From positions 562,581-626,580 of the forward strand of contig BCKZ01000003.1 of NCBI GenBank assembly GCA_001600815.1: a stretch of DNA of 64,000 nt. The letters are read 5' to 3'. Positions within the stretch are counted from its first letter, which is position 1. Every line of letters begins with the position of its first letter. The notes beneath the pieces were generated by a model. That model was not told where the DNA came from, did no database searches, and saw nothing but the letters and a program-made list of their open reading frames with translations. This stretch comes from Alloascoidea hylecoeti (Eukaryota). The translations under genes were made by a program, and so were the position numbers. This document shows positions 32,843 to 59,252 of the stretch, piece by piece.

Positions 32843-33703
32843 ATGAGTTTTGACATGAGTTTTAATGAAATTAATGAGTGGCTCGGTTGGGACACATTAA
32901 ATGATAACGTTAACTATGAAGAAATTATCCCAGCTGATACCATCATAATTAGCAGTCCTAAATTCAGTACCCCCACTAGCTATAGCAGTGATACTCCAAC
33001 TACAGAATTGAAGAGGCAAATCTATCCTTACTATTTTGACAATATACTTGAGGCAAATGGTAAAGTTTTCAATGGTAATGGAGGTACTCGAGGTTGGTTT
33101 GAGTATTGTATGCAATGGTTTGATCTTGACATCGGATGTTATTGCACAAATGAACAAGAATTAAAATATGCAATCTGGTTATACTTTACAGCCAAACTTA
33201 AAATCCCAATATATCAAAGAAAAACATTTAAAAATACAATAGGAAAACGATCCTATGAATATAGTTGTAAAAATTGTGGTAAAGTTGTGATTAACTTTAA
33301 TCAAACAAAATCACAAATGGGATATGGCTCTACCGCTGTGATAAATAAATGGGAAGTTGAAGAGATAGATAAAAATCATATTGATCATTGTACTATGCAT
33401 ACAGATGATTTCGACAGAACACCTGGAAGGAGAAAATGTATGCATCTAAGAGACCTAATAAAAACAATCGAAAATAAAGAGGGTAATAATAACACTATAA
33501 CTCATTCACAAATCCGCGAGATAACAGTTGATATTTTGCAAGACATATATTTTGGAAGAGCTTTCTGCTTTAAATATGTGGCATTCACAGTGGTTGATCC
33601 TAATGGAAATATAATTCGATTGAGTACCGATACATTAACTTATTATGCTATAAAATCTGATAGAGCGCGGTTTGTTAGAATGACACGACCAATTTTTAAG
33701 TGA
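32843..33703 (+). CDS. Orphan zinc-finger family copy A (MULE/WRKY-GCM1-like DNA-binding domain, no DDE)
   Basis: Intact ORF; ATG at 32843 or 32855 by alignment with paralogs. Core NGKVFNGNGGTRGWF..FDLDIG..NEQELKYAIWLYF..YEYSCKNC..KWEV..NHIDHC..IREITVDILQDIY. Confidence 0.75.
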   Translation: MSFDMSFNEINEWLGWDTLNDNVNYEEIIPADTIIISSPKFSTPTSYSSDTPTTELKRQIYPYYFDNILEANGKVFNGNGGTRGWFEYCMQWFDLDIGCYCTNEQELKYAIWLYFTAKLKIPIYQRKTFKNTIGKRSYEYSCKNCGKVVINFNQTKSQMGYGSTAVINKWEVEEIDKNHIDHCTMHTDDFDRTPGRRKCMHLRDLIKTIENKEGNNNTITHSQIREITVDILQDIYFGRAFCFKYVAFTVVDPNGNIIRLSTDTLTYYAIKSDRARFVRMTRPIFK

Positions 33704-34499
33704 TGATGCATTTCATAAATGAATTTTCTTTTTCTTCTATACGATGTTGTTCATAATAAAAACTGTTAATTTTAAAAATGGATGTATGTGGGTATACCGT
33801 TAATATAATAGAAAAAAATTAATCAAAATCAATTGAATTGAAATTAGAATAGAACCCTAATCAATTATTGGATGGAACCCCAACTAATTTCTATACTAAA
33901 CCCCTATTATTTATCACAAGCATCACTAAACCCACGTGCACATTTTTCCTTCTTAAATATATGACTTTACTTTCTATTCAACATCTTTCTTATTTATCCG
34001 TTTTTATATAAAGAGAAATGTAGTCTCCCATTTAGAAAGATATAGCTTTTATAACATGGAGTATCTACCAGTAAAATAAAAATTAAATTACCTAAATGTT
34101 TAACAGTAATAATTCATAATATTAGTCATCACTTACAAATGATAGGGTAAATATCTTCCATTCGGCATCAGCGTGCCCACAAGGGTGTAATCCCCAGCTA
34201 TTGAGGTCAACAATAACAAAGCTAAGTGAAAACTGGAGAAAATGTTACCAAATAATCAGGTGACTTCCATGTGATCAAAAGAAGGAACCAAGATGCTAAC
34301 AACCAAACAACCAAAAAATCAAAGTGGAAATTTACCGTGACTCATCCTATATATAACATTACATAATTTAATATTATTTGCTTTATTTATTTAAAGGGAG
34401 GTAGTATAAACTGTTGGATATATTACACTCTTGGAACAGTTCACTAAAGAGTCGATTGGCTTTTTGGCGCAACTGGGAGAACAGGCACTTTGAACTTTA

Positions 34500-34730
34500 A
34501 CATAAACGATCAAAAATAAACACTAATATTCAATGGAAAATCCGCGAAATAACTACCGATAATTTAAAAGACATAATATATTTCGGAAGAACTCTATGCG
34601 ATTCATACATGGGGATCACAGAGGTTAATAATTATAAAAATATATATCAATTGGCTACTGATGAAGCGTTTCACAATCCTATAAGATCGGAAAGCGGTTT
34701 CTTCAAAACACAGAATTAAGTTTTATATGC
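34500..34730 (+). pseudogene. Orphan zinc-finger family, 3' fragment
   Basis: TIKNK..NIQWKIREITTDNLKD..YFGRTLCDSYMGITEVNNYKNIYQLATDEAFHNPIRS aligns with the C-terminal third of copies A, C and E; the downstream flank resembles the 3' flanks of A and E. Confidence 0.75.
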
Positions 34731-35054
34731 CTAATTTTTAAATAAAATCTCTCTCTTTTATACATGATGTTTCGCCAAAAAACTGATTTTAAATAAAGGT
34801 GTATACATATACAGTCTATAAAATTGACACTACCGTTAATAGACAAACCCTAATATATGAAATCCGCTATTATAGAACAATTTTTCAAATTAATATTACT
34901 CCAGCAATCCCAATTAATTCAGCCGACTCAGTCAACTCAGCTTCTTCTGTTATTTCTGCTCACGTAAACGTATACTCTAATCATAAAATAGACATTCTAT
35001 CTGACTACATATTGATGAAGTAAATGTTTCAATGTATCCAAAATATCTTCCCAA

Positions 35055-35680
35055 ATGTTTACATTACTTCTGGGTGTTCTTAATACAATATCACAAAATT
35101 CTGATTTTTAAATTTGGAACACTGATGGAGCAAGTGCACACACAATCAACGTTAGACTCTTCATTTTACCTGATCAAACTAATGCAGATGTTAGCTGTTT
35201 CTTGATTTGGTCCTCTAAAGAAGTTGTTGAAATGAATTCATGATGAGAAGCTTTTAACAAAACCCATCAACATCAATCTCAAAAAAGAAAGATTTTGTTA
35301 TGTTATATTAGAAGTTAAGCGCTGAGACTATAACCTCCAAAATAATATGTTCGGGTATTTTAATGATTGGAATTTAGCCATTTAACTTCTGGACGCGTGG
35401 TTGATATAAGATGGCCGATGATCTCATGGTGCAAGATTTATAATCTCAAGATTCCATCACAGTTCTCGAAGATTCCCTAAAAACTAATTGAAGTGGAATA
35501 CAAACATATTTAGTTTAGATAAAACACTAATTGCACATAATCCACCAAAAAATAGCAAATAGAGACATACATATATGTGTTGCAAGCTTAGAGCTAGTGG
35601 TCTAATCCGTATCCGCTCACACCGCAACATTCACAAAAACAAACATCAAACATATATCAGATTTATGAGATTAATTATAT
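35055..35680. repeat. Dispersed repeat X, long copy
   Basis: Colinear with 47845-48430 (tacattacttc..cttaataca; gcagatg..tgtttc; gattggaattt.gcc; gcgtggttgatataagat; gtgcaaga; gttctcgaagat.cc.t.aaaact). Confidence 0.75.
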
Positions 35681-36090
35681 TAATGTAATTTTATTTGTAA
35701 TAATTTATGCTTGATAGTGAACTCTTATAATTCGTGGTTGCAAATTGCAATGCAACAACATTATTATATTTTGTTAGATATAAAGGATTGTCTTTAAAGA
35801 TTGTTTTTGTGATTAGTTTATGAAATGAGGCTCGATGTTTAGAACTTACTATATAGTCATTTCTACTTGTTTTTATAGAACAGATATATATATGATAATA
35901 TACAGATAATAACTATTCTTTAAAATATGTCATCAGATACAAAAGAGGTATAAAGTCCCGATTATGGTTTATAGAATATACTTTAATACTTAATTATATT
36001 TTGGGATTATTGCCGCTCGCTCAGTCACTCATAATAAATTTGTTTCGGTGAATCCAGATATGGTATAATTGTATGGAATATTAATTATAA

Positions 36091-36160
36091 TTAACATTTA
36101 CATTCCTTTTGACATCTGCAAGTACTAGTATCACCACAAGAACAAACTTTTATGTTCAAA
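36091..36160 (-). pseudogene. Metallothionein 3' relic
   Basis: Minus strand reads NIKVCSCGDTSTCRCQKECKC*, matching the C-terminus of the MT at 57059; the 3' flank 36010-36090 matches 56985-57060. The 5' part is missing. Confidence 0.8.
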
Positions 36161-36299
36161 AAAAAGAAGAAAAAGGAATAGATGTCAGCCACTTGTTATA
36201 CATTGAAAGGACCTAAAAGATCCTAAATTTAATAAGACAGATTATAAATTTTTAAAATCTGTCTTAGAACACTTAGAACACAAGAGCAAACTGCATATA

Positions 36300-36800
36300 C
36301 GATCAAGTCTAAAGTTGTACCTTTTTCCTGAAACCACTCCATATAAAAATGCATTTTGAAAATCCACAACATTGACTACTAGAATACTGTCAATCGCGAT
36401 TTAGGTAATAGTAGCCCCTTGAAGAAATTGTAACCAACTAAGCGAATTGAAATTCTCACTATCCAAAATAGGCAAAAGGTTTAATATAAATCTTTCAAAT
36501 ATGCGGTTTATATAAATATGGCAGTAACTCTTTGTGTAAACCCTTCCCCGAAGAAGTTGGAATGACAAACATTTTTTGAGAGAGCGGCAAATTAAAGGTT
36601 GTAAAAGGCCTTCCCATTGAAGACGTTTCAAGTGCTTACTTGAAAGTTCAACATTGATATATCGAAGCCCACCCTAATAACTAATAACCCTTTTGAAAAA
36701 ACATGAATATGGTTTCTGAATGAGCAGAATCAAAGGAAGAATATTATAATTATATGATCTAAATATTTGGAGTGGAAGTGTGGGTGTTGTATTTAGACTG
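36300..36800 (+). mobile_element. Tc1-like family 2 relic (left end and 5' transposase)
   Basis: Homologous to 38580, 41630, 48935 and 57560 copies (tccaaaataggcaaaagg.. = SKIGKRLNI HTH; aaccc.tttgaaa; ttctgaatgag..caaagga). Confidence 0.6.
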
Positions 36801-37502
36801 ATAATTGTTCTAGCTATGGTGTGGGTATGCATATGCATAGTAATCTGGAAGAGTTTAGGATTATTTTATAACCAGTTTTTTACATGAGCTATAAAGATAT
36901 TTCATCAAATGTATACCAATATTAGATTTTGTATGGATATATTTCTCGATTCATACAGCATCATACATAGTTAATATCAACTTGGTGATATTACTATCAT
37001 TTTGAATACTCACCGTTTTATATAGATTATAAAATTGTGGCTGTTCATGGGTACATACTATTACTACATACGTATGGTACATGCATAGCATGATACCAGC
37101 CTTAAATTTCTCAAAACTAATATTAAATACACGCAATGAATGTAAGTTTTAATATAGAGTTAGGTTTATGCTTGTCGTATAAGAAGATAAATACATTTAA
37201 AATACACCCAAACTAACACTATTATGTAACTTATTTTTAGACTTTCTAATAAAAGCCAAAATGAGTTTAATTCTGGCCGAGTAATTTTGTTCTTACTTAT
37301 TGACATTTGACCTTACGTATGTGTTTCATTTTCTATCCTTTAAAATAATCGAGATATACATGTATTTAATTAGATTTAAATGTCTTGCTATTGCACTTGG
37401 TTTGCAATTTAAATCACTTTCTCATAAAATTCAGATATATGTTCAATCGCAATAATTCAAAGCATCAAATATCTCAGAAAATCAACACATTTTATTTATA
37501 TC

Positions 37503-38325
37503 ATGAATTCTGATGAAATCAATAAGTTGCCTGATTGGGACCAAGGTACATTAGACGACAACTATAAAACGATTATTGAGCAGTCTGAGCTCCAGTCCTA
37601 GTACTAGTCACAGTAGTGATACTTCACCTAGAGTATCGAGAAGTCACATACATCCTCATTATTTAGACAAAACACTTCAGGAGAATGGTAAAGTCTTTAA
37701 TGGAAATGGAGGTACTCGAGGTTGGTTTGGGTATTGCATGCAATGGTTTGATCTTGGTATTGGATACTATTGCACAAATGAACAAGAATTAAAATATGCA
37801 ATCTGGTTATACTTTACAGCCAAACTCAAAATGTCTGTACATCTAAGAAAAACATTAATAAATAAAAAAGGAGAAAAATGTTATGAATATAGTTGTAAAA
37901 ATTGTGATAAATCTGTGATTACTTATACTCAGAAAAAATCACAAATGAAATCTAGTTCTATCGCTGTAATGACCAAATGGGAAGTTGAAAAGATAGTTGA
38001 AAATCATGATGATCATTGTAACATACATTCAAATGATAAAACACTAGGGAGGATAAAATGTATGTATTTAGAAGACCTAATAAAAACAATCAAAAATAAA
38101 GAGGGTAACACTAATAATCAATCGCAAATCCGCGAGATAACAGTCGATATTTTGCAAGATATATATCTCGGAAGAGCTTTCTGCTATTCATATGTGGCAT
38201 TTACAGAGGTTGATCCTAATGGAAATATAATTCGAGTAGGTACGGATAAATCTACTTATAATGCTATAAAAGCTGGTAGAGGTCAATTTCTTAGAATAAC
38301 ACGGCCAATTTTTAAGATTATATAA
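37503..38325 (+). pseudogene. Orphan zinc-finger family copy B (frameshifted near 5' end)
   Basis: Nearly identical to copy C (43507-44355) but lacks 23 nt (tcacagcagcggctaataccacc), so the ATG at 37503 reaches a TAG after about 32 codons. The listed 37576 ORF starts at TTG. Confidence 0.85.
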
Positions 38326-38579
38326 TTAAAATTTTACTAGAAAATTTAAGTTAACACGAGGTAGATTTATAATGCAATACTAACAATCTCTTTTGATAGA
38401 GTGATTTTATAAAATGTTAAAAACTTTTTACCTGATAACTAATAATGATATGTGAACTGCCGATCGTCTATTAAGGTTGTTAAGCTTTTTCAGAGATCCC
38501 TCCAAAAAATAAACCATCTTCTTAATTATATATATAATGGCTTCTAGAATTCAACATCTTTCTTGTAACTTTAACTCTA

Positions 38580-39590
38580 AAAAGAAATTCCAACCAGCTG
38601 AGCGGATTGAAGTGTTTAATCTGAATAAACATGGTTTCTTAATTGTCGAAATAGGCAGACAGCTAAATATTTCCTCCTTAAAGTGTGAAGTTCAGTGTTA
38701 AGATATACTCCGACAGCTTTTCTCGCAAAAACTTCTCCCCAAACAAAAGAGTCTTAGGCAGTTAATAAAAGGAGTTTAAATCGAATTCTGAGGGTTGTAA
38801 AAATTTTCTTCGAATATGTTTTGGGACCTGGCTTCAAAGTTCAATCTTAAAGTATCAAAGATCATATAAGAACCTCTGTGAAAACATGAATGTGGAATAT
38901 TTTCGGTATCTAACGGTCCTTTTCTGAATTAGAAGCACCAATGGAGAATAATGATATATATAGTACAAATCTAAATTGGATTATTAATGGGACGTTTGTG
39001 GTGATGTTGTAATTACTAACTAATGTTCGGTCGCTAAAGGAAAAGTATATGCTCGACATTAAATTCAAAATATTTATAGAATGCAGGAGCTAAAGTCTTG
39101 GTCTATGAGACTTCTAGTCTGTGGTGAAATTTGGAAAGATATTTGTGCCTTACGATATATGCATATGGTATATAGAGTAGTTGGGGTCTCAATTGCACAA
39201 AGCCAGCGCAGGTTCCTAGGTAAATATAATTTCTAAGAGGGGCCATTTCTGAGGGTATCTTATTCAACAACGATAGCACACCTATTCATTAAGCAAGAAT
39301 CCCTTTGAATTAGTTTTGTGGTAATGAGATAGAGGTGCTGAAGTGGCCACCTTTTTCACTGGTCTGATCCATTTGAGGGCAATTGGGAATATCCTCAAAA
39401 ATGTTCATCACAAGAAAGGAATTATGATTATGAGCCTTCCATGCAGTGTAGAAATTATGAAGGATCTATGTTTTGAATTTTTCAAATTATTGGGAATTAT
39501 AGATCATTCAAGAATATCAGTGATAATCTTACTCCATGATCTTTACGGCGGCATCCGTTTAGAGGGATATGGGACGAACTACATTAGGGT
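38580..39590 (+). mobile_element. Tc1-like family 2 transposase relic, near full length
   Basis: PAERIEVFNLNKHGFLIVEIGRQLNIS (HTH); GPFLN; GILFNNDSTPIH*AR..NEIEVLKWPPFS (decayed QQDNAPIH...WPPxSPDLNPIE); LEGYGTNY at the end. Many stops and indels. Confidence 0.8.
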
Positions 39591-39599
39591 TCCACTCCA

Positions 39600-40140
39600 A
39601 GTAAACAATGGATCTAATTAATCTTAAACTTCGATTGTTCTTTTCCCGTTTTGAATTAAGGTAACTATTGACAAGATGGTGAGTAGTGGTTGGATATATA
39701 AACAGGAAGTAGGTTTTACGCGTCTCACTTTTTGGAGGTGGGTTTTCTTTTGGCTAAGTAGCACAACAAGGCGAAGGAATGTGCGCAGTGGACACACCTT
39801 ATGGACTAATAGTATCTTTAGAATTACTGAATATCATGCTCCATTTTAAATACAATTTAAAGTCTTGTAAAAGTTTCACATATTGATTATAATATTGCCA
39901 TTTCTATATAGGGTATCCAAAATACATGGCAGAACTTTTGACTTTACCTGGCTGAAAAATTGCGAAACAATATTCAAGGAGAGTAAAGACTACAGCTTGC
40001 GTTTTTTGAGCACTCGAGTTCTTAGCCGACCGTGCTTCACAGTTTTCACACCTCATGTCAATTTTCTGTTGCTATCACATGAGATGTGGTTACAGTTGTT
40101 GTACAATTCTTCATTCATTATAACAAGAACAGAATTCGAA
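39600..40140. repeat. Repeat Y, putative right end of Tc1 family 2
   Basis: Direct match to 45050-45540 (cagtg..acaccttat.gactaatag; gtcttgta; ggca.a.cttttgactttacc; cgtgcttca) and partly to 42440-42620. Confidence 0.65.
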
Positions 40141-40824
40141 TTTGGATACCAATTATATTCAAAAAGAGTGATTTCTCTATAATAAAATTCAGGCTAAATT
40201 TATTTCAAGATCTACATAATTATAAATATATATAAATTTATTCAATTTCAAATAGGTTCATAATTAACAACATTGATAGTTTAATTAAGCTTTATTTATC
40301 CCAGTTAAAATAGTTACAAGATTTTAAGAAAAGAACGTAAAATGTGCTAGGAAGAGAACTCATATCATGATCATATATCAAAAAAAACTGATATACATGT
40401 ATTTAAATTTTCTCGTTTATTTTTTATTTTTATTTGATTAATATTTGGAGCTGGAGTGTATATTTGCAATTGGGAATCCTCCATTCACATCACTCGGAGG
40501 TAATACGAGATGCATGCTAAAAAGCTTATAGCTCACTACTCAGCCTCGTCAATTGCCAAATCGTCAAAACAATTTTAATAATATAAGTTATAAGATAATA
40601 AACGTGGATTAAATAATTGATGTATGTGTGCATATATTTATTGTATGCATATGTAATGTAACTCATTTTAACTTTAGGAAGTCAAAAAATGAGTTTAATT
40701 CTAGGCTTTTGTACTATTTTTTGTCCTCACATCATGATCATATCATGACATTGTAATTAGACGTTACATAAAGCTTGATGTTTATTTTCAAAACCTCAAC
40801 TACATATTTTATCGGACCAAAATT

Positions 40825-41100
40825 TATTAGACAAAAAATATGAAGCAATTATCACAGCGACGGCTAATACCACCACGAACGGTACTAGCTTCGCTACTTG
40901 TACTTTAGTATCGAGAAGTCACATATATCCATACTATTTAGACAGCATACTTTAAGGAAATAGTAATATTTTTAATGGAAACAGAGGTACTCGTGGTTGG
41001 TTTAGATACTGCATGCACCACTAGTTTGATCTTTATTATTCCACGAATGGGAATGAACAAAAATCAAAATATCCAATCTGGTTATATACTTTATGGCAAG
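40825..41100 (+). pseudogene. Orphan zinc-finger family, 5' fragment
   Basis: gcaattatcacagcgacggctaataccacc...gtatcgagaagtcacatatatccatactatttagac...tttaatggaaacagaggtactcgtggttggtttagatactgcatgcac...aatgaacaa...caatctggttata; stops and truncation. Upstream 40490-40710 matches the family promoter. Confidence 0.85.
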
Positions 41101-43506: not shown

Positions 43507-44355
43507 ATGAATTCTGATGAAATCAATAAGTTGCTTGATTGGGACCAAGGTACATTAAACGACAACTATAAAGCAATTATCACAGCAGCGGCTAATACCA
43601 CCTTGAGCAGTCTGAGCTCCAGTCCTAGTACTAGTCACAGTAGTGATACTTCACCTAGAGTATCGAGAAGTCACATACATCCTCATTATTTAGACAGAAC
43701 ACTTCAGGAGAATGGTAAAGTCTTTAATGGAAATGGAGGTACTCGAGGTTGGTTTGGGTATTGCATGCAATGGTTTGATCTTGGTATTGGATACTATTGC
43801 ACAAATGAACAAGAATTAAAATATGCAATCTGGTTATACTTTACAGCCAAACTCAAAATGTCTGTACATCTAAGAAAAACATTAATAAATAAAAAAGGAG
43901 AAAAATGTTATGAATATAGTTGTAAAAATTGTGATAAATCTGTGATTACTTATACTCAGAAAAAATCACAAATGAAATCTAGTTCTATCGCTGTAATGAC
44001 CAAATGGGAAGTTGAAAAGATAGTTGAAAATCATGATGATCATTGTAACATACATTCAAATGATAAAACACTAGGGAGGATAAAATGTATGTATTTAGAA
44101 GACCTAATAAAAACAATCAAAAATAAAGAGGGTAACACTAATAATCAATCGCAAATCCGCGAGATAACAGTCGATATTTTGCAAGATATATATCTCGGAA
44201 GAGCTTTCTGCTATTCATATGTGGCATTTACAGAGGTTGATCCTAATGGAAATATAATTCGAGTAGGTACGGATAAATCTACTTATAATGCTATAAAAGC
44301 TGGTAGAGGTCAATTTCTTAGAATGACACGGCCAATTTTTAAGAATGTAATATAG
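43507..44355 (+). CDS. Orphan zinc-finger family copy C (282 aa, intact)
   Basis: ATG-initiated open frame with all family motifs (CKNC...KWEV...NHDDHC). Confidence 0.78.
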   Translation: MNSDEINKLLDWDQGTLNDNYKAIITAAANTTLSSLSSSPSTSHSSDTSPRVSRSHIHPHYLDRTLQENGKVFNGNGGTRGWFGYCMQWFDLGIGYYCTNEQELKYAIWLYFTAKLKMSVHLRKTLINKKGEKCYEYSCKNCDKSVITYTQKKSQMKSSSIAVMTKWEVEKIVENHDDHCNIHSNDKTLGRIKCMYLEDLIKTIKNKEGNTNNQSQIREITVDILQDIYLGRAFCYSYVAFTEVDPNGNIIRVGTDKSTYNAIKAGRGQFLRMTRPIFKNVI

Positions 44356-45540: not shown

Positions 45541-46372
45541 TCTGGATAAATAATGAACATATTCTTTAAAACACGACATTAACTATCTACTTATAAAAGA
45601 AAAGAATGTCAAATGTATGAAGAAGAGAAGTCCTAAATCCAGAACAACTGTATTTGAGTCGGCGTATAATTGCGGTGATCCTTGATTCTCGTATGTCTTA
45701 ATCAACACGACCGATATATCCTCTATCCCCACTTACATATACATAATTATTAACTTATTCAAAATGAGCGTTTATTTCAAACCCCAATCTATCAGTTCAT
45801 TTGATATTTTTCTAATCATAATCAAGTATAGAGTTTCGATTACTAGTTCCTATATTTGTATTAATAGATTTGAACAGTTTGTTGGTATAAATCACTCGGA
45901 GATAACACGAGATACAAGAGAGATGCCGTAGCTAAGCCTCGTCAATTGTAAATTTTTCAGAACTAATTATAATATTATAAGGCCAAAAAGGTGAAGTTTA
46001 ATAATAAACCGGTAAGTATTTTACTTAATACTTAATGTTGTAGCATAAGATGAGCAATATATCATTATGTAACTTATTTTTAGACTTTCCAATAAAACTT
46101 ATAAATGTCAAAATGAGTTTAATTAATATTCTAACCAACTATTTTTTGTTCTTGCTTCATGAAAGTTTGAAAAACATTGCAATTAATATTAAACTATGGT
46201 ACCGCCACCATCATATGAATAGTTAATTTAAGTAAATAAAAGTGTCTTGTTGTTGTTTAAACCACCTCCTCATAAAATTCAAATACTGTTATATACACAT
46301 TTTTTCAATTTCACTAATTTAAAGCATATTTCTAGCTATCCCAAAACCTGAACGACACATTTTACTGATATC

Positions 46373-47214
46373 ATGGATATTAATGAGTTGCTTAATCCGG
46401 ACCAAGATACATTAGACGACAGACTTAATACAAATGTTACACCAGCGGCTAATTCCCCATTAATTATAAAAAATACTACCTCAGCTACAGTATCAAGAAG
46501 ACAAATATATCCGTACTATTTAGACAGAACACTCCAGGAAAATAGCAAAGTCTTTAATGGAAATGGAGGTACTCGTGGTTGGTTTAGATATTGCATGCAC
46601 TAGTTTGATCTTGACATTGGATACTATTGCACAAATGAACAAGAATTAAGATATTCAATCTAGTTATAATTTATAGTAAAACTAAGAATCCATCTGCAAC
46701 ATAGTTATTGGCCTAAAAATAGAGAAGGAGAAAAACACTATACTTATGGTTGTAATAAATGTGATAAAAGTTTAATTACCTTTATTCGCATATAGAATCT
46801 GGTTCTACTGCTGTAACACAAACATAGAAAATTAAAGAGATGGGTAGAAATCATAATGAGGAATGTATAGAGAAAAGTAGTGTAACAACCGAAAGAAGTA
46901 CCGGTAAGCATTTAAGAGACCTAGTACAAACAATCGAAAGTAAAGAGGGTGACGTTAATAATTATAATCAATTGAAAATCTGTGAAATAACCGTCGATAT
47001 TTTGCAAGATATATATCGCGAAAGAGCTGTCTTTGGTTCAGATATCAATGTGCCATACTGGTATACAAAGGTTGATTTTCACCGAAACATATTACGAGTG
47101 GATATGAATAAAGCTACATGGAATGATAAAGAGAAAGAGAAAAAGCCATTTCATAAAGCAATAGTACCAATTATTTATGAGGGCCAGCTGATGTATTATC
47201 ACATAATTCTATAG
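46373..47214 (+). pseudogene. Orphan zinc-finger family copy D (stops and frameshift)
   Basis: First 76 codons encode the same peptide as copy E; then TAG at conserved Trp (46601), further TAG/TAA and a frameshift near 46800. CNKC...NHNEEC and EITVDILQDIY are retained. Confidence 0.88.
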
Positions 47215-51290: not shown

Positions 51291-51732
51291 GTGTTTGAAA
51301 AATAGGTAGTAATTATGATAGTAAGGATAACAACTAAATTTGGAATTAAAGGATTGTTATTGTTAGGTTAAGGATAATGATAATGAATGAAAGGATGATG
51401 TATAAAAGGATTATGAAAATGTAAAAAAGGATAGTGGATTGATTAATTAAAAGGTCTCAGCTCAGTAATATTTACACTCCCAATGTGTTTTATTTTGTTT
51501 ATATTTTACCTGAATCTTTTTATTTGATTGTAATTAAGAATTGAATTGAAAATATAATGATATAAATCTCTCACTCACTTTTTTTTTTCTTTTTCTTTTT
51601 CGTTTTTTTCTTTAAATTTGTGTTTTATTTATACTTTCCGGAAGCTTTGCCATAACCATTAAAAGAAATCATAGTTTTTTCGATTGCAAGGCATTGAATT
51701 GAAAATAAGTAAAATGAGGTGATATAAATTGG

Positions 51733-53274
51733 TTATAGTCTCTTCCCAGGAACCAATGCAAAAATACAAGTCATTATAGCAACAGAAATTGCAATAATAA
51801 CAGAAACAAAACCAGATCTTTTTAATAATAATTTATAAACAAAAGGTTCTTTTATTTTAACCATCATTCTACTTAATGAAAACCAATTTCGATTTTTTTT
51901 ATTAATTTGAAATGAAGAAAAATTTGGTTCACTTGGTGAATCTTTTTCATTTGTTGGTAAAATTGTTGTTGTATTATCCATTGTATTTATATCAGCTTGT
52001 GATGAATAACCAATTTGTTCAGAATATCCAAGCCACATTACAATTGGGTCTAAATTATATAAGGAGCAAATGATATAATATAAGCCAATACCAAAAGGTA
52101 TTATTACAGAAACTCTTGTTGATTTTGGTTTCCAATCTAAAAAGATAAAGATAAAACCAAGCCAAAATCCAACCCATAAACAAACAAGTCCAACAACTAA
52201 ACGTATTAATGAACCTTGTGGTGATAAATTACCTAAAGCTTTATATTGTAAAAAAATTGGAAAAGCATCCTTTTCCATTGCTTGAAATACATATTCTCTT
52301 GCTTCGTCAAAGACTTCAGGATCATCTCTACCTTCAATTTCAACGGCATGTCTTACGGATTGAATAATATGAGGAGGTATAACGATCTCACGTTCAGCAC
52401 CTGGGATGAAATAAGTAACTAGTAAGCGACGAGAAGAATCTCTAATATCTTGACGAGATACAAAAGTAGTTGTGTTTGGGCCTTTTGAAGAACTTGGAAA
52501 AAGTTGTTCTAATAATTCTGGAGTGATTGTTCTTTTATGATTTGGTTTTAAATCTTCAGCAGATTGTTGTGGTTGTTGTTTATTATCATTTACATTTAGA
52601 TTTGTTTCAGTTTGTGGATTGGGTTGTAGTTGTTGTGGATCAGATTGTGCATGTTGAGGGAAAGCATTTTCGGAAGGAGTTGTTGGGGATTGGATAGAAC
52701 TTCGGAAGGAATCTCTTAGCAATTGAGATTTAGCTCTAATGCTTGATAAGCGTTGCTCATCAGGTTCAAAGTTTGAGCTTGTATGGGAGTATCTATCGTA
52801 AACTTTTGAAGGAGATTCGAGTTCCTGGTTGCGCAAGTGGTCGGGCATCTCAGCGTACTGCTCAATGAGCTGCGTGACACGGAACAGCTTCTCGTCGTCG
52901 CCCGGGAGAAGTTCGTCACCTCTCAGGAAGCAGGAGAGCCTGTGGGCGTCGTTGTCGTCGAGCACCCCCCCTTGGATGAGGGCGTCCAGCAAAACCGAGG
53001 AGGAGGTTGACTTGTGGGTGTCATTCTGGGCCTGGGCCTGTGGAGGGTGGGCCTCGTCGGAGAGCATGATGGACTGGCGCAGGCCACGGACGTAGTAACG
53101 GCACAGAGAGAGGTGCTGGACGGCATCCAGCCAGAAGTCCAGGTAGTCAATGGAACGCTGCTCGTCGCGCATAAACAGGTAGAAGGACCACAGATCGACG
53201 GGCGCACATGTTTTTCGGTTGAGGACCTCGTACAACGTGGGCAGACGTTGCAAGGCAGAAGTGGTGGAGGACAT
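51733..53274 (-). CDS. RAX1: Bud-site selection protein Rax1 (RGS domain plus 3 TM helices)
   Basis: RLPTLYEVLNRKTCAPVDLWSFYLFMRDEQRSIDYLDFWLD; YFIPGAEREI; EGRDDPEVFDEAREYVFQAME; C-terminal TMs ending VPGKRL. Confidence 0.92.
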   Translation of the reverse strand: MSSTTSALQRLPTLYEVLNRKTCAPVDLWSFYLFMRDEQRSIDYLDFWLDAVQHLSLCRYYVRGLRQSIMLSDEAHPPQAQAQNDTHKSTSSSVLLDALIQGGVLDDNDAHRLSCFLRGDELLPGDDEKLFRVTQLIEQYAEMPDHLRNQELESPSKVYDRYSHTSSNFEPDEQRLSSIRAKSQLLRDSFRSSIQSPTTPSENAFPQHAQSDPQQLQPNPQTETNLNVNDNKQQPQQSAEDLKPNHKRTITPELLEQLFPSSSKGPNTTTFVSRQDIRDSSRRLLVTYFIPGAEREIVIPPHIIQSVRHAVEIEGRDDPEVFDEAREYVFQAMEKDAFPIFLQYKALGNLSPQGSLIRLVVGLVCLWVGFWLGFIFIFLDWKPKSTRVSVIIPFGIGLYYIICSLYNLDPIVMWLGYSEQIGYSSQADINTMDNTTTILPTNEKDSPSEPNFSSFQINKKNRNWFSLSRMMVKIKEPFVYKLLLKRSGFVSVIIAISVAIMTCIFALVPGKRL

Positions 53275-53464
53275 AAGAAAAGAGCGAACAGAGTGGGTGT
53301 CTTGTCACAAACAAGCTGGGAGCAAACACCACTGAAGGAGGCGGCCCGGGAATGTCACGCCCGCGTAAACCTCAGCACGCACCACCCAGCTCGCGTACAC
53401 CCACACGCCCGCGGCCTTGTCTATTTATATCCTCCACCTCTTGTTGCTGGGAAGAAAAGCAACT

Positions 53465-53776
53465 ATGACCGTCCCTGCCGTGGCCCTGGCTGCCCTCGCA
53501 CGCCCCCTGGCTGCCCTGCCCCTGGCTGCCCTCGCACGCCCCCTCGCACGCTCCGTCCTTCCCCTCGCGTGCTCCCTGCTGCCCTGCAGGCCCTTCGAGA
53601 CCAAGACCGCTTCCGAGGAAAACAACGAACAGGCTTTTGAAAGAAGAAAGAAGAGAAACGAGGAGTACTTCATCCGCCAGGAGGAAGCCCAGAAACTGGC
53701 CGCTCTACGTCTGCACCTGAGAAAGCCAAAAGAATCCACTGCTCAAGAAGAGATCGACTCTAAAACTAAAAACTAG
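53465..53776 (+). CDS. INH1: Mitochondrial F1F0 ATPase inhibitor (IF1/Inh1/Stf1 family), 103 aa
   Basis: Arg/Leu/Ala-rich presequence, then AFERRKKRNEEYFIRQEEAQKLAALRLHL, matching the IF1 F.KRE...E.Y.IRQ.E.E.L..LR pattern. ATG at 53465. Confidence 0.72.
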   Translation: MTVPAVALAALARPLAALPLAALARPLARSVLPLACSLLPCRPFETKTASEENNEQAFERRKKRNEEYFIRQEEAQKLAALRLHLRKPKESTAQEEIDSKTKN

Positions 53777-53938
53777 AACCATCCCATCCATTAGATCAGA
53801 TATGCTTATGCCTTATGTTTATGATTAGTTATGCCTTATGACTTTTTTTTATTATGAAACTGTATGATCATTATTTACTATAATTAAATAATTAAATAAT
53901 TAAATAATTTATAAACCTATAAATTTATAAATCTTAAA

Positions 53939-54275
53939 TTAAAGACTTTCAACAGCTCCTGAAATATATTTTTCAAAATCAAAATTTGCATCACTTAAAT
54001 CTAATGTTGTTGAATTTGTCGAAACTGGTTTTGGATTTAATTTAATATATTCTTTTTTGGCTTCTTCAATTAATTTTAATTTTAAATTCCATTCATTTTC
54101 TGATGCTTTTTTAATTGCTGATGATTGTAATGTTGATCGATGATAAAATCCATAAAATACTCCTGCTCCAACAGCTGACCATCTTAAAACCTAAATCATC
54201 ACCATTAGTTAATAAATAGTAATTGATTAACAATTAATCAGGATAGTTTCTTACATTAACAACAGGGGATGCCAT
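53939..54275 (-). CDS. TIM11: ATP synthase subunit e (90 aa, 1 intron; missing from the ORF track)
   Basis: Exon 1 54275-54255 MASPVVN; intron 54254-54191 (GTAAGA..ACTAAT..TAG); exon 2 VLRWSAVGAGVFYGFYHRSTL...LIEEAKKEY...DFEKYISGAVESL*, with the GxxxG dimerisation motif. Confidence 0.9.
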
Positions 54276-54456
54276 TTTATCTTTTCTCTAAATGTAACGT
54301 AAATTGCAGAAAATGAATTAACTCGTCTTGATTTGCCGGCACTCATTTCGTAAAGGGTGTCCGGTGGTCCCAAATATATACCATTCTGTAATATACGCAC
54401 CATTCCTTCCACATCACTATCATATCATAATCAATCGATTAATATCAAATCAAAAG

Positions 54457-55115
54457 ATGAACATTCTTACTTTATTTTTAAATCTTTTTATTTTTAATTA
54501 TGTTTCGGCATTAGACATTCAATTATATGCAAAAGATTTAATATCTTCATCAATCAATCAATTTGGTTTAATTTCTTATGATTATGATTCAAATGATTAC
54601 CGGTATACTGCAACTTTTGTTAAAAATGATAATTTTAAAATAAGTGAAACAAGTAATGGTGGGTTTTGTATTGGAATTATTGATAATTCTGATAATTTTA
54701 AATGTCAAAGTATAGCAAAGGTAAGATATTTTTTAACTTCTGCCGTGTAAGTTAATTTACTAATATGAAATAGCTTGGATATCCATTAAATGGTGAAATT
54801 ACATTAACTACATTAAATGATGGATCAATTAAACATATTGATTATTCACCATATAATCATATCCCACAATCATCTAAAAATAAAATAAAACCAAAATCCA
54901 TCACAAAAGATGAAAATAAAGATGAAAAAGATAAAATTAATGTTAGAATATCAATTTCTAAAAAAAGTATAACACCACCTTTAAAAAATAAAATTAAATT
55001 AATTGATAATAAAGAACCAGAACCTGAAGTTCCTAAATCATTTATACAAAAATATTGGATGTTTTTAACAATTCCTTTGGTTTTAATGACTCTTGGTGGT
55101 GGAGCTGGTGAATAA
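54457..55115 (+). CDS. EMC10: ER membrane complex subunit 10 (201 aa, 1 intron)
   Basis: Signal peptide MNILTLFLNLFIFNYVSA; FCIG..C; intron 54721-54773 (GTAAGA..TACTAAT..TAG); C-terminal EPEVPKSFIQKYWMFLTIPLVLMTLGGG. Confidence 0.85.
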
Positions 55116-56629
55116 TTAAACCAATCAATTGCAAATTTAGATAGATTGAATATATTATTGCTATTTATATAATCATAGAAACGAATCAGTAATTTTGTTT
55201 GGAATTTAAGATTTAAGATTATAAATATTTTTGTTTGACGTTTCAAAATAAATATTATTATGTTTTAGAGATAAATCATAATCATAATTAAGCAAAGCCA
55301 CTTGAAAAGCTAATGTCAACCATGTTACACTAATTTATTTCCTAAAAACTTCTTGATAACGTTTAATATTATCATCATTCAAAAATTATGTCAAAAATGG
55401 AACATTCATGTCATAGTTTTAAAGGATTAGATTCTTACACACGCTTATAGTTAAACCAAATAAATTATGATCAAATCAGTTTCAGATCTTATTTAAATGA
55501 TCTTCAAAACTTAATTTGACTCCAATTTCTTTCAAAGATTTATTAGCATGTACATCATTCCCTCGAGCTCATAAATCTTCAAAACGTTTTACCCAAAAAA
55601 TACTTTTGGCAAATCCCTTATGTTTTACCTCAAAATGTAATCAATCAATCAATCAATCAATGTATAATTATATTAGTTTTCATTATGCTTTGCTAATATT
55701 AAACCATCATCCACCGTAAATAATTACCTTTAAATTAGTTTCAAGATTATGGAAAACACAAGTTTCAATCGCAGAATTAATAAGTTCTATCTTATTTGGT
55801 GCTATTCGTAATGTTTGATACCAATTTACATACACGGGGCTTAGAAAAGTCATATGGCAGGTTCTGGTTTCAAGATTCTGAATACCGATAGATGGCTGTA
55901 CAGTACTTGTTTACATAAAAATTACTCAGAAATCTTGTGCTTACATCAAATTAATTAATCTTTGATGTTAGGATATTGAATTATAAACAATCTGAAGAAA
56001 CTATAATTTGCTAAGAGAGAAAAGTCTCTACAAAATTAATATATTTTTCTTATTCCTTCACGACAAGTTAAATACTTGTACAATATACAAATTAAATATT
56101 TTCTACAAGTAGATGGCATACGTAATTTATATTTATACTCGGATACCACAACATTGTTCTGTTGTAACCACAGATTACAAAGTCAGCAACAAAGATAAAT
56201 GATTATTTTAATCATTATTTTTTCAATATTCTCTCTTTGTGATTTTTTCTATGATCTGAGAATTTTTCCATAATTTAATTTAGCGCTTTGACATTCATAA
56301 AACGCAATTTTTAATTACACCATGATAAGTTATACTGTAGATTTTTTCTTAAAGTGGTTATCATAGTGTAATGTAATAATTAAGAAGATCTATAACATTC
56401 CAAAATATGAAAAAAGTTTCCAAATCGCCGCAACTCAGAAGTTCCATTTTGAATTTAATCACCACCAAAATCGAAAGCTTCTAATCTTGGAGAGCAAGAG
56501 TTCATTTGACGACTTGATATTTTTGTAAAAATGGTTATCTCGCTAATATAGAGTTGTTTCCACAAGCTAATTGATCAAATTAAGCTTACGAAGTGTAAGT
56601 TCAAATACCCAGACAGAGATTTTAGGGTG

Positions 56630-56875
56630 TTATTATTTCAAATTTCCATCAGAGTACTCGAACATCCTTTAAAAACTATTCGAAGTTGAATTCATAGATC
56701 AGGAAGGTATATATAATTCTACAGAAATTACATGTTTTAGTTGTGTGTCACTATCAGAAGATTGGAGATAATGGGTTTAATACGTTAAATCGTAGAAGAA
56801 AGCTCACAAAAATGGCCAAGCAAAGTTTACAAAAAGAAAATTTCAAACAAAAAATTATCAGATTTTTAAAATTAC
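56630..56875. repeat. Dispersed repeat X, partial copy
   Basis: aatttccatcagagtactcgaacatcctttaaaaactattcgaag...aagattggagataatggg.ttaatacgttaaatcgtagaagaa...gtttacaaaa...tatcaga. Confidence 0.7.
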
Positions 56876-57058
56876 ACCACAATTAAAAGAGAAAATCAAA
56901 CAAGATATATTTATAAGAATATAAAAAATACAAATAAATTAGAACATTTCAATGAATTTATAGTTATTTCTTGGAATTTTAGCCACTCAGATCTGCTCAC
57001 GTATGATAAAAATTTGTTTTAATAAGTTTAGATATAGTATAGTTGTATGAAATATTAA

Positions 57059-57247
57059 TTAACATTTACATTCATTTTCACATTTGAAATTATCACCACA
57101 AGAACAATTCTTTATTTTTGAACATTTGCATAACGATCCACAACTTGAACAAGAGCATGTTTTTGAAGTATTTTGAGATTTAGAATATTGGAAGATTTTT
57201 CCACAAACACACACACAAGTAGAAGAACAAGAACAAGAACAGGTCAT
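57059..57247 (-). CDS. Metallothionein (62 aa, 16 Cys)
   Basis: MTCSCSCSSTCVCVCGK...CSCSSCGSLCKCSK..CSCGDNFKCENECKC: CxC clusters, AAAATG start context, TATAAA-like element about 90 bp upstream. Confidence 0.85.
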   Translation of the reverse strand: MTCSCSCSSTCVCVCGKIFQYSKSQNTSKTCSCSSCGSLCKCSKIKNCSCGDNFKCENECKC

Positions 57248-57559
57248 TTTAGTTTTGTTTTGTAGATGATATTTTATTTGAAAGTAAGTAATTTAAAACT
57301 GGTTTTTGATTTTGTTTAATATAGATGAATTTAATTATTTATAAAAAGAAGAAAAGAGGAGATTTTACCAACTATTTATACATATGGTAAAGACTATTGG
57401 AAAGCACAAATTTCTCAGTTTTAAGTTTTATATAAAAAATGAAGGAGAACAATGCACGCTGCTTATCAAAATAAATGTTTTTAAGTAAAAGCACAAACCT
57501 CTCAATTGTATTCATACACATTAAAATATTGAGCGAAATGCATATATAAGTTTTACGGC

Positions 57560-58210
57560 CAAATTAAGTCTAAAATTGTGCTTTTTTGGAAGCCACTCCA
57601 AATAGAATCTCATCTTTTCAAATGCATCACAAAAATACTTATAGAATACTGTTAAGTGAGATTTCTGGAAATTATAGTCCTAAAAACCAATTGCAATCAG
57701 TTAAGTAGATTGAAATATTTAATCTAAGTAAACATCCAAATGGCTTCTCAATTTTGACAAAAGGCTAACACTTAATATTACATCTTCAACCTTGGGCTTC
57801 ACACCAACAGCCGATGTAACATGCCCTCTAAAAGAGTACAAAACAAATTATGAGGTTGTAAATGTTTCCACATTTAATACATTTAATGAACTGACTTCAA
57901 AGTTCAACAATGATATTTTAATGACTATCCGAATAACCCACTTGTCAAAATATAAATCTGGAACATTTTTCGTGAGAAAAATACCTTCTCTGAAGAGGAC
58001 CCAAAGGAAGAAAAAATTATGGTCTGTAAAGAGATCGGAATAGTTTTAGGACGATTAGGGTGGTGATGTATTCAATAATGAATGTTTGGGGCTACAGGAT
58101 CCAGGTCTAGAAAAGTATATTTTAGACGACAATCAGGTCAGGCTTTGAAACCTCAAAAGATTTATAATACAAAGATTTTTGAGTATGTGAGTTTTATGGT
58201 ATAGACTTAG
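57560..58210 (+). mobile_element. Tc1-like family 2 relic
   Basis: KNQLQSVK*IEIFNLSKH..GFSI; SGTFFVRKIPSLKRTQRK; ttagacgacaatcaggtcaggctttgaaacctcaaaa (RRQSGQAFEPQ-like); colinear with the other copies. Confidence 0.65.
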
Positions 58211-58457
58211 TTTTTGGGAGGAGTTCATTAGATCGATCTCAGATATATGTTTAATATTCTAAGCTTTAAGATCATGTAAATCTATTTGAAGAACTATAAT
58301 TGATTATGAAATTTCGATTTTGCAATTGAACTATTACCACCCATCACTTAATTAATTAATAATTTAAATAACCTTCTCATGAAATTCAATTATTATACAT
58401 ATTTGTTAACATATTTCTAACTATCCCAAAACCTAAACTACACATTTTACTGATATC

Positions 58458-59252
58458 ATGGATATTAATGAGTTGCTTAATCCAGACCAAGATACATTAG
58501 ACGACAGACTTAATACAAATGTTACACCAGCGGCTAATTCCCCATTAATTATAAAAAATACTACCTCAGCTACAGTATCAAGAAGACAAATATATCCGTA
58601 CTATTTAGACAGAACACTCCAGGAAAATAGCAAAGTCTTTAATGGAAATGGAGGTACTCGTGGTTGGTTTAGATATTGCATGCACTGGTTTGATCTTGAC
58701 ATTGGATACTATTGCACAAAAGAACAAGAATTAAAATATGCAATCTGGTTATACTTTAAGGTCAAACTCAAAATCCCTTTATATCAAAAATGGTCATATA
58801 AAAATCAATATCATTATGGCTGTAATAATTGTGGTGAAACTATAATTACTTTTATTCTTAAAAACTCACAAATGGAATTTGATTCTACCGCTGTAACACA
58901 AAAATGGGAAGTTAAATATATTGATAGAAATCATAATGTGTATTGTGATATGCATAAAAAGAGTAATGGTACACCTCTAAAAATAAAATGTATCTATTTA
59001 GATGACCTAGTACAAACTATCAAAAATAAAGAGGATAGGGTTAATATTCAATCGGAAATACGCAAAATAACCGTCGATATTTTGCAGGACATATATCACG
59101 GAAGAACTTTCCGCTCTTCAATCATGACATTCACAGTGATTACTTATTATGGAAATATATATGAATTGAATACTGATGAACTTACTTATAATGAAATAAG
59201 AAAGGACAGAGATTACCTTTTTAAAATAACACGCAGAACTTTTAATCAATGA
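58458..59252 (+). CDS. Orphan zinc-finger family copy E (264 aa, intact)
   Basis: ATG-initiated; YGCNNC...QKWEVKYIDRNHNVYC...IRKITVDILQDIY. Confidence 0.78.
   Translation: MDINELLNPDQDTLDDRLNTNVTPAANSPLIIKNTTSATVSRRQIYPYYLDRTLQENSKVFNGNGGTRGWFRYCMHWFDLDIGYYCTKEQELKYAIWLYFKVKLKIPLYQKWSYKNQYHYGCNNCGETIITFILKNSQMEFDSTAVTQKWEVKYIDRNHNVYCDMHKKSNGTPLKIKCIYLDDLVQTIKNKEDRVNIQSEIRKITVDILQDIYHGRTFRSSIMTFTVITYYGNIYELNTDELTYNEIRKDRDYLFKITRRTFNQ

Follow-up and report, generated by a model that had tools for sequence, protein, structure and literature searches.

Babu et al. 2006 (PMC1702500, excerpts) describe WRKY-GCM1 zinc fingers as four-stranded at the core, with zinc chelated by a Cys that ends strand 2, a Cys that opens strand 3 and a His dyad that ends strand 4. 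The residue at -2 from the first Cys is hydrophobic, and strand 1 holds a conserved aromatic that corresponds to the W of WRKY. According to the same excerpts, a helix precedes strand 1 in the MULE-associated families and their Cys spacer is short, the HxC family among them has HxC as its C-terminal ligand pair, and the Mutator-associated fingers have stand-alone fungal derivatives in Rcs1/Aft1, Aft2 and Candida Rbf1. BED fingers carry the signature Cx2CxnHx3-5[H/C] (excerpt of PMC3606216, citing Aravind).

We analysed a tandem array of related genes in a 64-kb stretch of DNA, referred to as a whole as the window. The best reading of this locus is a lineage-restricted zinc-finger-like family, probably DNA-binding, under birth-and-death and concerted evolution, and we give this reading about an even chance of being correct.

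Seven copies on one strand

Searches of the window by tblastn with copies A, C and E and by profile HMM on the six-frame translation agreed on seven family copies, found no further one and placed all of them in + frames, about 3 kb apart (Table 1). The initial annotation had placed at least seven copies on the + strand at these positions, and the ORFs and translations agree with the states that it assigned. Three copies are intact (A, C and E), two are broken (B and D) and two are fragments, a composition that bears out the proposed birth-and-death evolution. Copy A, described as starting at 32843, is an intact ORF that probably begins 69 nt earlier at an in-frame ATG, because the extension aligns with homologue P0001 from residue 1. 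Compared with copy C, copy B has lost 23 bp after 37575 and is thereby shifted in frame; 3' of the deletion, over 37576-38322 (249 codons), the two copies differ in 4 codons, all nonsynonymous. The first 76 codons of copy D are protein-identical to copy E and are followed by three in-frame stops (codons 77, 101 and 103) and then a frameshift near 46786.

Most copies had been said to share upstream DNA, and a 16-mer is indeed found as an exact + strand match at all four sites given for it and at no other, 276-360 nt before the ATG of copies A, B, C and D in flanks that have otherwise diverged. It was not found upstream of copy E, which is preceded by a four-gene island of conserved genes. The array itself lies in a gene-poor, repeat-bearing stretch, with a degraded Tc1/mariner transposase about 400 nt upstream of the likely start of copy A and a dispersed repeat of about 150 bp occurring three times inside the array. 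Spacer ORFs of at least 50 aa in the array gave 0 Pfam matches and no recurring partner gene. The host genome is AT-rich (30% GC) and intron-poor. All 4 CTG codons of a PP2A-like gene fall at Leu/Val/Met positions of human PP2A; judged from this sequence, the host looks like a standard-code budding yeast with CTG read as Leu, which places it outside the CTG-Ser clade.

Table 1. Coordinates of the array features within the window.
Feature	Position	Strand	Basis
Conserved upstream 16-mer	32488..32503, 37227-37242, 43147-43162, 46070-46085	+	exact match
Copy A, intact (probable start)	32774..33703	+	ORF; tblastn 32843-33700; 286 aa from 32843, 309 aa from 32774
3' fragment = copy C residues ~205-270, 46% identical	34501..34719	+	tblastn (34501-34716); HMM E 8e-11; translation
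Gene-conversion tract B/C	37395..38300 with about 43399-44330	+	pairwise alignment, 100-column windows
Copy B, frame-shifted	37503..38325	+	tblastn (37503-38322); alignment with copy C
5' fragment with stops = copy C residues ~45-111	about 40887..41087	+	tblastn; HMM pieces; translation
Copy C, intact, 282 aa, copy used for modelling	43507..44355	+	ORF; tblastn (43507-44352); AlphaFold2
Helix + four-strand putative zinc-binding domain of copy C, residues 90-186	43774..44064	+	domain model, residue indexing
Gene-conversion tract D/E	46330..46660 with about 58415-58745	+	pairwise alignment, 50-column windows
Copy D, pseudogene	46373..47214	+	tblastn (46373-47211); HMM; translation
Copy E, intact, 264 aa	58458..59252	+	ORF; tblastn (58458-59249)

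A narrowly distributed family with a conserved core

A phmmer search of 1,835,955,588 cluster representatives returned 11 matches, one of which is the window's own ORF. These 11 homologues are 84-536 aa long, and none of them is named or carries a Pfam domain, a DDE or a transposase. The identity is 59% for P0001 and 39% for P0002. Four longer forms (346-536 aa) have long low-complexity N-termini, and short and long forms split in the tree with support of 100/99. Each long form appears to be a single gene. The core is kept in proteins from other contigs that are 25-39% identical. The family is real but very narrowly distributed, lineage-restricted and unannotated.

Residues R80, W82, F83, Y137, C139 and C142 are invariant in all 12 family members, and both I-Q-D-I-x2-G and W167 are found in 9/9 full-length members. 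The TRxWF-type and I-Q-D-I-x2-G motifs, which the initial annotation had called private, thus extend beyond the window. The alignment places an H-x3/4-C pair in 8 of the 9 full-length members, spaced as H-x3-C in short forms and H-x4-C in long forms; homologue P0005 is without an aligned H/C pair. Copies A, C and E all retain C139, C142, H176 and C180, the four putative Zn ligands claimed for them. The motifs of the conserved pattern described earlier are likewise present, with six residues rather than five between KWEV and the His.

Predicted structure and possible kinship of the core

In the full AlphaFold2 model of copy C (pLDDT 78.6, pTM 0.74), residues 1-51 are disordered and residues 55-280 form a compact core, mostly with pLDDT above 85. 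The N-terminus of the intact copies is short and disordered, acidic and then Ser/Thr-rich. Modelled in isolation (pLDDT 86.9), the domain is one helix and four strands. The predicted strands of copy C (120-127, 133-139, 145-155 and 163-172) are antiparallel with loops of 5-7 residues, and a predicted helix (101-115) is immediately N-terminal to strand 1. Strand 2 ends with C139, and C142 lies three residues ahead of strand 3. H176 and C180 come 4-8 residues past strand 4, in a short turn of helix beyond the strand end itself. In this model the C-x2-C hairpin and the H-x3-C pair at one end of the sheet most likely form a C2HC zinc site, and we infer zinc binding by the core. The strands are basic (13 K+R vs 5 D+E, pI 9.64). 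Disordered N-termini in the window copies and long low-complexity N-termini in the long forms resemble a transcription-factor architecture; these, the basic strands and the putative zinc site would be indirect signs of a sequence-specific transcription factor.

Several features of the predicted core coincide with those published for WRKY-GCM1 fingers. The AlphaFold2 prediction has four strands, the residue at -2 to the first Cys is Y137 in 12/12 members, and the helix stands N-terminal to the sheet as in the MULE-associated families. The Cys spacer of x2 is short, as in the MULE-associated HxC family; the C-terminal pair is H-x3/4-C, not HxC. Family alignments show no invariant aromatic in strand 1, the positions varying between L, Y, I and V. 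The ligand pattern literally satisfies the BED signature, with no Pfam zf-BED match.

None of the 12 members matched the Pfam models for WRKY, FAR1, DBD_Tnp_Mut, AFT, FLYWCH, GCM, BED or MULE even at E<=10, a null limited by the HMMER filters, which drop most very weak matches. Foldseek, which has limited sensitivity for small zinc domains, gave 0 PDB matches at E<=0.001 for either the whole model (best E 0.037) or the isolated domain (best E 0.22). No WRKY, GCM or Aft entry was among the best 50 PDB matches listed for either model, and those listed, among them SnoaL-like proteins, AMPK KA1 and designed cystatin-like sheets, are alpha+beta proteins of a generic kind. A sequence-profile search of the PDB returned only a chance match to Kaiso (E 0.88), and no significant match to the family was found in BFVD (viral structures) or the ESM Atlas. 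No MULE DDE was detected in 30.8-64 kb of the window (123 of 146 ORFs scanned) or in the 11 homologues, consistent with the claim that no DDE domain follows the copies.

The MuDR/FAR1-like fold proposed in the initial annotation is favoured by the predicted helix and four strands, the Cys pair at strand 2/3, the aromatic at -2 and the His/Cys pair past strand 4, but not by a Pfam or PDB match. Its Pfam candidates (DBD_Tnp_Mut, FAR1, AFT, WRKY and FLYWCH) all failed, and its structural comparison yielded the predicted sheet and a candidate zinc site but nothing significant in the PDB. The core may plausibly descend from the DNA-binding domain of a Mutator-like transposase, but this stays an unproven lead, because no Pfam superfamily model and no significant PDB or viral structural match supports it. 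Likewise, we treat 'transposase-derived' and 'transcription factor' as inferred descriptions, because of the Pfam and Foldseek nulls and the lack of a transposase in the homologues.

These same nulls, across Pfam, PDB sequences and structures, BFVD and the ESM Atlas, would be expected if the core were a new fold, or at least shared no ancestry with WRKY-GCM1/BED or any transposase, with a convergent C2HC site and helix-plus-sheet layout; such a core may bind nucleic acid or do something else. Small zinc domains, however, often escape Foldseek and single-family HMMs. The model (pTM 0.74) resembles a single compact unit of 225 residues and not a 60-residue finger with tails, and TRxWF and ILQDIY are without counterpart in the excerpted WRKY-GCM1 description (PMC1702500). 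Against convergence, strand number, ligand placement, the -2 aromatic and the N-terminal helix are several independent published criteria whose joint fit goes beyond a bare CxxC...HxxxC coincidence. We consider a new or unrelated fold unlikely, although a serious candidate.

Selection and gene conversion

The dN/dS among copies A, C and E is 0.36-0.69 by ML and up to 0.89 by NG86. For A-C, omega is 0.45 (bootstrap CI 0.30-0.70) with 0 bootstraps >=1, for A-E 0.59 (CI 0.40-0.88) with 0.7% of bootstraps >=1, and for C-E 0.89 (CI 0.61-1.36). Residues 56-89 have an omega of 0.14-0.26, and omega is highest in the sheet domain (0.56, 0.69 and, for C-E, 1.43), a value above 1 in one pair of three sequences being no test of positive selection. 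Purifying selection acts on the core, as A-C and A-E lie below 1; the N-terminal TRxWF motif is strongly constrained, the sheet domain little or not at all. A dN/dS of about 1, which the initial annotation would have held against its own proposal if joined with a lack of transcription, is seen in neither pair involving copy A but lies within the C-E interval. Because of this C-E value and that of its sheet domain, either copy C or copy E may be drifting.

Two pairs of copies share conversion tracts. The B/C tract is 95-100% identical per 100-column window, save one window with the 23-bp deletion (77 identical and 19 gap columns), and its flanks are only about 50-55% alignable. The D/E tract is 92-100% identical per 50-column window, with flanks at 40-60%.

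A tandem array with rapid turnover, pseudogenes and ongoing ectopic conversion, an extremely narrow taxonomic range, a gene-poor location adjoining the Tc1/mariner relic and high omega in the surface-exposed sheet domain could also point to a genetic-conflict family, selfish or defensive, such as a drive/killer-type element or an anti-mobile-element factor, in place of an ordinary regulator. This seems improbable to us. The proteins have no toxin-like, membrane or enzymatic feature, the spacers hold no recurring partner gene, the long forms are apparent single genes with transcription-factor-like low-complexity N-termini, and the one elevated omega is no test of positive selection.

That the ORFs are nonfunctional relics in decay is very unlikely. 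Broken copies make up four of the seven, the C-E interval includes 1 and the B/C codon differences are all nonsynonymous, but three ORFs of 264-286 aa remain open despite 30% GC, omega is below 1 for A-C and A-E, the core persists in diverged proteins of other contigs and AlphaFold2 predicts the fold confidently.

The copies are not bounded by TIRs, as they would be inside the TIR/TSD-bounded MULEs that the initial annotation named as contrary evidence: no TIRs are common to them, and the only inverted pairs detected are AT-rich, 26-40 nt long and 71-81% complementary. That non-autonomous Mutator-like or other transposons carried them or left them as remnants, so that they spread by transposition and not by tandem duplication, is scarcely credible despite the nearby transposase relic and the dispersed repeat, given seven same-strand copies at ~3-kb spacing, only direct self-matches >=60 nt involving the array, no inverted repeat within 6 kb that is >40 nt or of >81% complementarity, a single weak inverted pair that flanks copy C and is not common to other copies, and no MULE DDE in the scanned ORFs or homologues.

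Discussion

In our preferred reading of a lineage-restricted, probably DNA-binding family, the locus is a tandem same-strand array in which each intact gene encodes a disordered N-terminus followed by a compact alpha+beta core centred on a helix and a four-stranded antiparallel sheet. The predicted sheet may bind DNA in the manner of WRKY-GCM1/BED-type fingers, the proteins would act as sequence-specific regulators, and the array evolves through tandem duplication, ectopic gene conversion and pseudogenisation. More speculatively, and on the unlikely side, the core could represent an undescribed zinc-dependent class of sequence-specific DNA-binding domain of a small standard-code budding-yeast clade that escapes Pfam, the PDB and the Atlas, either a structural BED/WRKY-GCM1 intermediate or a new fold, with the array recording fast diversification of specificity (omega highest in the sheet, >1 for C-E).

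If the core binds DNA, a clade-restricted regulator family has been wholly missed by current annotation, and the idea that yeasts hold more transcription factors than have been counted would gain support. If the Mutator-type link is true, yeasts would have recruited a transposase DNA-binding domain independently once more, beside Aft1/Aft2 and Rbf1, and this family would be caught early and still expanding, with intact genes, conversion tracts and pseudogenes together. If that link is false, a confident AlphaFold model without a PDB neighbour is a candidate new fold.

Comparison with known systems

Wor3 of Candida albicans reportedly belongs to a DNA-binding family that is restricted to one small clade of yeasts, said to be the CTG-Ser clade, and that domain databases do not detect. 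The analogy is one of kind only and implies no sequence likeness, the window host reading CTG as Leu and lying outside that clade.

Like a BED finger, the family fits Cx2CxnHx3-5[H/C] (PMC3606216, excerpt) and draws its putative C-terminal ligands from a helical segment, a BED feature according to the excerpts of PMC1702500. Unlike BED, it separates the two ligand pairs by at least 33 residues that include two long strands, giving a four-stranded sheet and not a hairpin.

Several points set the family apart from WRKY-GCM1 fingers. No member of that superfamily is a significant match in sequence or structure, the C-terminal pair is H-x3/4-C in a helical turn as opposed to HxC or HxH (PMC1702500, excerpts), strand 1 lacks a conserved aromatic, and the domain sits in a larger conserved core whose TRxWF and ILQDIY motifs are specific to the family. 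In the long forms the insert precedes the first Cys, and does not fall between the two Cys as in the insert-containing WRKY-GCM1 family of the excerpted description (PMC1702500). Unlike for Mutator-associated fingers, no transposase-linked relative was found among the 11 homologues. As in the Mutator-associated WRKY-GCM1 fingers of the same excerpts (PMC1702500), a predicted helix is followed by four strands, the Cys spacer is short, the Cys lie at the strand 2/3 hairpin with an aromatic at -2, and a His/Cys pair comes past strand 4. Like Rcs1/Aft1, Aft2 and Rbf1, the family is stand-alone, DDE-less, found in a yeast and recently duplicated.

Seven family loci lie in tandem

Searching the window by tblastn with the three intact proteins (copies A, C and E), and its six-frame translation with the family HMM, returned the same seven loci, all in plus frames, which bears out the seven same-strand copies of the initial annotation; neither search found an eighth locus in the window. 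Copy A carries an additional in-frame ATG at 32774, 69 nt upstream of the start first annotated, giving a 309-aa protein whose alignment with the homologue P0001 begins at residue 1. At B and C (37428-37520 and 43432-43524) a deletion of 5 nt relative to A has put the ancestral upstream ATG out of frame, where it opens an upstream ORF of ~24 codons that overlaps the main start codon, and D and E have lost the upstream ATG of the copy A type. The upstream 16-mer first reported for four copies has exactly four exact occurrences, at the positions reported (32488, 37227, 43147 and 46070). It precedes copies A, B, C and D by 276-360 nt, within flanks of otherwise poor conservation, and was not found upstream of E. 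As a speculation, it may be a common, possibly autoregulatory, control element of these four copies.

Family loci and neighbouring features of the window
Feature	Position	Strand	State or content	Evidence
Tc1/mariner transposase	31302-32367	minus	degraded, split over three frames	DDE_3, HTH_Tnp_Tc3_2 and HTH_23 matches
Copy A	32843	plus	open ORF, 286 aa from first annotated start	
C-terminal fragment	34501-34716	plus	fragment	tblastn and translation
Copy B	37503	plus	frame broken by 23-bp deletion after 37575	
N-terminal fragment	about 40887-41087	plus	fragment	tblastn and translation
Copy C	43507	plus	open ORF, 282 aa	
Copy D	46373	plus	three in-frame stops, then a frameshift	translation
Island of four conserved genes	51733-55264		RGS-domain protein, ATPase-inhibitor-like ORF, ATP synthase subunit e, EMC10	
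Copy E	58458	plus	open ORF, 264 aa	
288-aa ORF	about 62160-63026	minus	no Pfam match	
Dispersed repeat	5790-5990; 20305-20480 (inverted); 35600-35750; 48350-48460; 56740-56880			

A protein family beyond the window

Queried with copy A, phmmer matched 11 of 1.84 billion cluster representatives at E<=0.001. One of them, P0009, is an ORF that the window itself carries within pseudogene D. The rest comprise the short forms P0001 (59% identity) and P0002 (39%), the C-terminal fragment P0003, four long forms of 346-536 aa with long low-complexity N-termini (P0004, P0005, P0007 and P0008) and three truncated predictions. All homologues are unnamed singleton clusters on unannotated contigs, and none contains a Pfam domain. 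Word-indexed protein searches added no members to the phmmer set. The profile search was redone with a core-only alignment, its first version having probably been hampered by gappy N-terminal columns, and recovered the same family and nothing further. Residues Y137, C139, C142, P59, R80, W82 and F83, among others (copy C numbering), are invariant in all 12 aligned members, as are W167 and the motif I-Q-D-I-x2-G in the nine full-length ones. A maximum-likelihood tree of the family, D and the fragments left out, splits short from long forms with support of 100/99 and leaves the branching among short forms without resolution. Judged by their sequences, these proteins form a genuine family.

Selection and gene conversion within the array

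The initial annotation had proposed dN/dS among the intact copies as a check on its reading. Across four methods, pairwise values were 0.26-0.57 for A-C, 0.36-0.75 for A-E and 0.64-1.03 for C-E. Bootstrapped NG86 estimates over the core lie below 1 for A-C (0.45, interval 0.30-0.70) and A-E (0.59, 0.40-0.88), with 0.89 (0.61-1.36) for C-E. Constraint is uneven along the protein, with dN/dS of 0.14-0.26 at residues 56-89, 0.56, 0.69 and 1.43 in the sheet domain (residues 90-186) and 0.41, 0.88 and 0.98 in the C-terminal part.

Copies B and C have in common a tract of ~900 bp that is 95-100% identical per 100-column window, save the window with the 23-bp deletion, and is surrounded by barely alignable flanks; D and E, 12 kb apart, have one of ~330 bp with 92-100% identity per 50-column window. 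Both are tracts of gene conversion, so the array shows concerted evolution alongside the birth-and-death mode first proposed. Self-comparison reveals decayed homology among the array spacers, as would fit a duplication unit that was once larger, at about 3 kb. RIP-like decay of D was rejected, as C>T and G>A are not enriched relative to the remaining substitution types between D and E.

Predicted structure

AlphaFold2, given the 12-row alignment, modelled copy C with a mean pLDDT of 78.6 and a pTM of 0.74, leaving residues 1-51 disordered; from residue 55 on, most blocks reach 85-97. Short helices (63-68 and 78-89), a two-residue bridge and a helix at 101-115 precede four strands (120-127, 133-139, 145-155 and 163-172) and a helical turn at 176-179. 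The remaining 100 residues fold as a helical subdomain (helices 197-208 and 214-230, three short strands, helix 257-279). The same elements were predicted for residues 90-186 modelled alone (pLDDT 86.9). The loops joining the strands are short (5-7 residues), which forces the four strands into an antiparallel meander. On this topological inference both candidate ligand pairs, C139 and C142 at the hairpin between strands 2 and 3 and H176 and C180 in the stretch following strand 4, lie at one end of the sheet.

Transposase and transposon boundaries

The helical C-terminus agrees with the earlier statement that no DDE domain follows the zinc-finger-like region. In the 30.8-64 kb interval we scanned 123 of 146 stop-to-stop ORFs of at least 50 aa against Pfam, a set that excludes the family copies and the RGS gene with its overlapping ORFs; no MULE domain was present in these 123 ORFs, which matched a Tc1/mariner relic, three housekeeping genes and nothing else. 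The relic, the only transposase among them, lies ~400 nt upstream of the likely start of A at 32774. The alternative that all copies sit inside TIR/TSD-bounded MULEs fares poorly: self-matches of at least 60 nt involving the array are all direct, and the inverted repeats found within 6 kb (26-40 nt, AT-rich, 71-81% complementary) include none common to different copies. One inverted pair around copy C, I5, was treated as chance because other copies lack it and the B/C identity tract begins inside it. Separately, a dispersed repeat of ~110-190 bp with a common core, 70-77% identical, occurs five times in the window, three of them within the array, and is possibly what remains of a solo LTR or a MITE.

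Genomic setting

The window has a GC content of about 30% and long, intron-free ORFs typical of budding yeast. Pfam matches identify an RGS-domain gene, an ATPase inhibitor, ATP synthase subunit e and EMC10, a PDB sequence match identifies a PP2A-type phosphatase, and on visual inspection other large ORFs resemble a TPR protein, a TBC GAP, a neurofibromin-like GAP and a protein of the Avo1/Sin1 type. Neither Rfam matches nor tRNAs (ARAGORN) were found in the window. The conserved-gene island splits the array between D and E; GC is 44.6% near its RGS gene, versus about 30% elsewhere, and falls to 19.9% in the preceding 2 kb, which contain the window's sole two N bases (50801 and 50803). The stretches 14300-22200, 33700-51700 and 55300-64000 are unusually gene-poor for a yeast, with no stop-to-stop ORF above about 140 aa apart from the family copies and the 288-aa ORF. 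Within 1018-30752, GC3 is 0.07-0.11 in three Asn-rich genes versus 0.26-0.39 in other neighbouring genes, which suggests that base composition varies strongly on a local scale. The four CTG codons of the phosphatase all correspond to Leu, Leu, Val and Met in human PP2A, so the organism reads CTG as Leu and lies outside the CTG-Ser clade. Membership in the Wor3 family was dropped, leaving an analogy, as CTG read as Leu argues against the CTG clade.

Likely function and comparison with known zinc-binding folds

Indirect evidence bears on function: the N-terminus is disordered, acidic and Ser/Thr-rich, the strands are basic (13 K+R versus 5 D+E, pI 9.64), a C2HC zinc site is probable, and the low-complexity N-termini of the long forms look transcription factor-like. 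The most economical reading is a putative sequence-specific DNA-binding regulator, whose sheet would contact DNA by analogy with WRKY-GCM1 domains.

Whether the family belongs to that superfamily, as initially annotated, was judged against database searches and the published fold definition. Not one of the 12 members matched the WRKY, FAR1, DBD_Tnp_Mut, AFT, FLYWCH, GCM, BED or MULE Pfam models, even at E<=10, and the profile search of PDB sequences gave Kaiso as its sole match (E 0.88). In Foldseek, neither the whole model (best E 0.037, TM 0.15) nor the isolated domain (best E 0.22) matched a PDB entry at E<=0.001. Among the 50 PDB matches listed for each, neither search included WRKY, GCM or Aft entries, and the domain's neighbours were generic helix-on-sheet proteins. 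ESM Atlas gave no usable match to the whole protein or to residues 56-190 (the latter against named clusters). Capture from a virus is unsupported because the BFVD viral structures yielded no significant match to the model. With Pfam, PDB, Foldseek, BFVD and ESM Atlas all without a significant match, the fold-level resemblance to WRKY-GCM1, real as it is in the model, lacks statistical support. We rate membership in the superfamily as about as likely as not, and Mutator ancestry as less likely, since none of the relatives has a transposase.

According to Babu et al. (2006; PMC1702500), the WRKY-GCM1 fold has a four-stranded core with a conserved aromatic in strand 1, zinc-binding Cys residues closing strand 2 and opening strand 3, a hydrophobic residue at -2 from the first Cys and a His dyad closing strand 4; both Mutator-associated families have a helix preceding strand 1, and in the HxC family the Cys spacer is short. 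The modelled domain resembles this description in strand count, predicted Cys placement and the invariant Tyr at -2, and the Mutator-associated families in its N-terminal helix and short spacer. It differs in having no aromatic in strand 1 and, in place of the His dyad, H-x3-C or H-x4-C in a predicted helical turn. C-terminal ligands in a helical turn are, in the same paper, the BED/C2H2 condition, and the family's ligand pattern literally fits the BED signature Cx2CxnHx3-5[H/C] given in PMC3606216.
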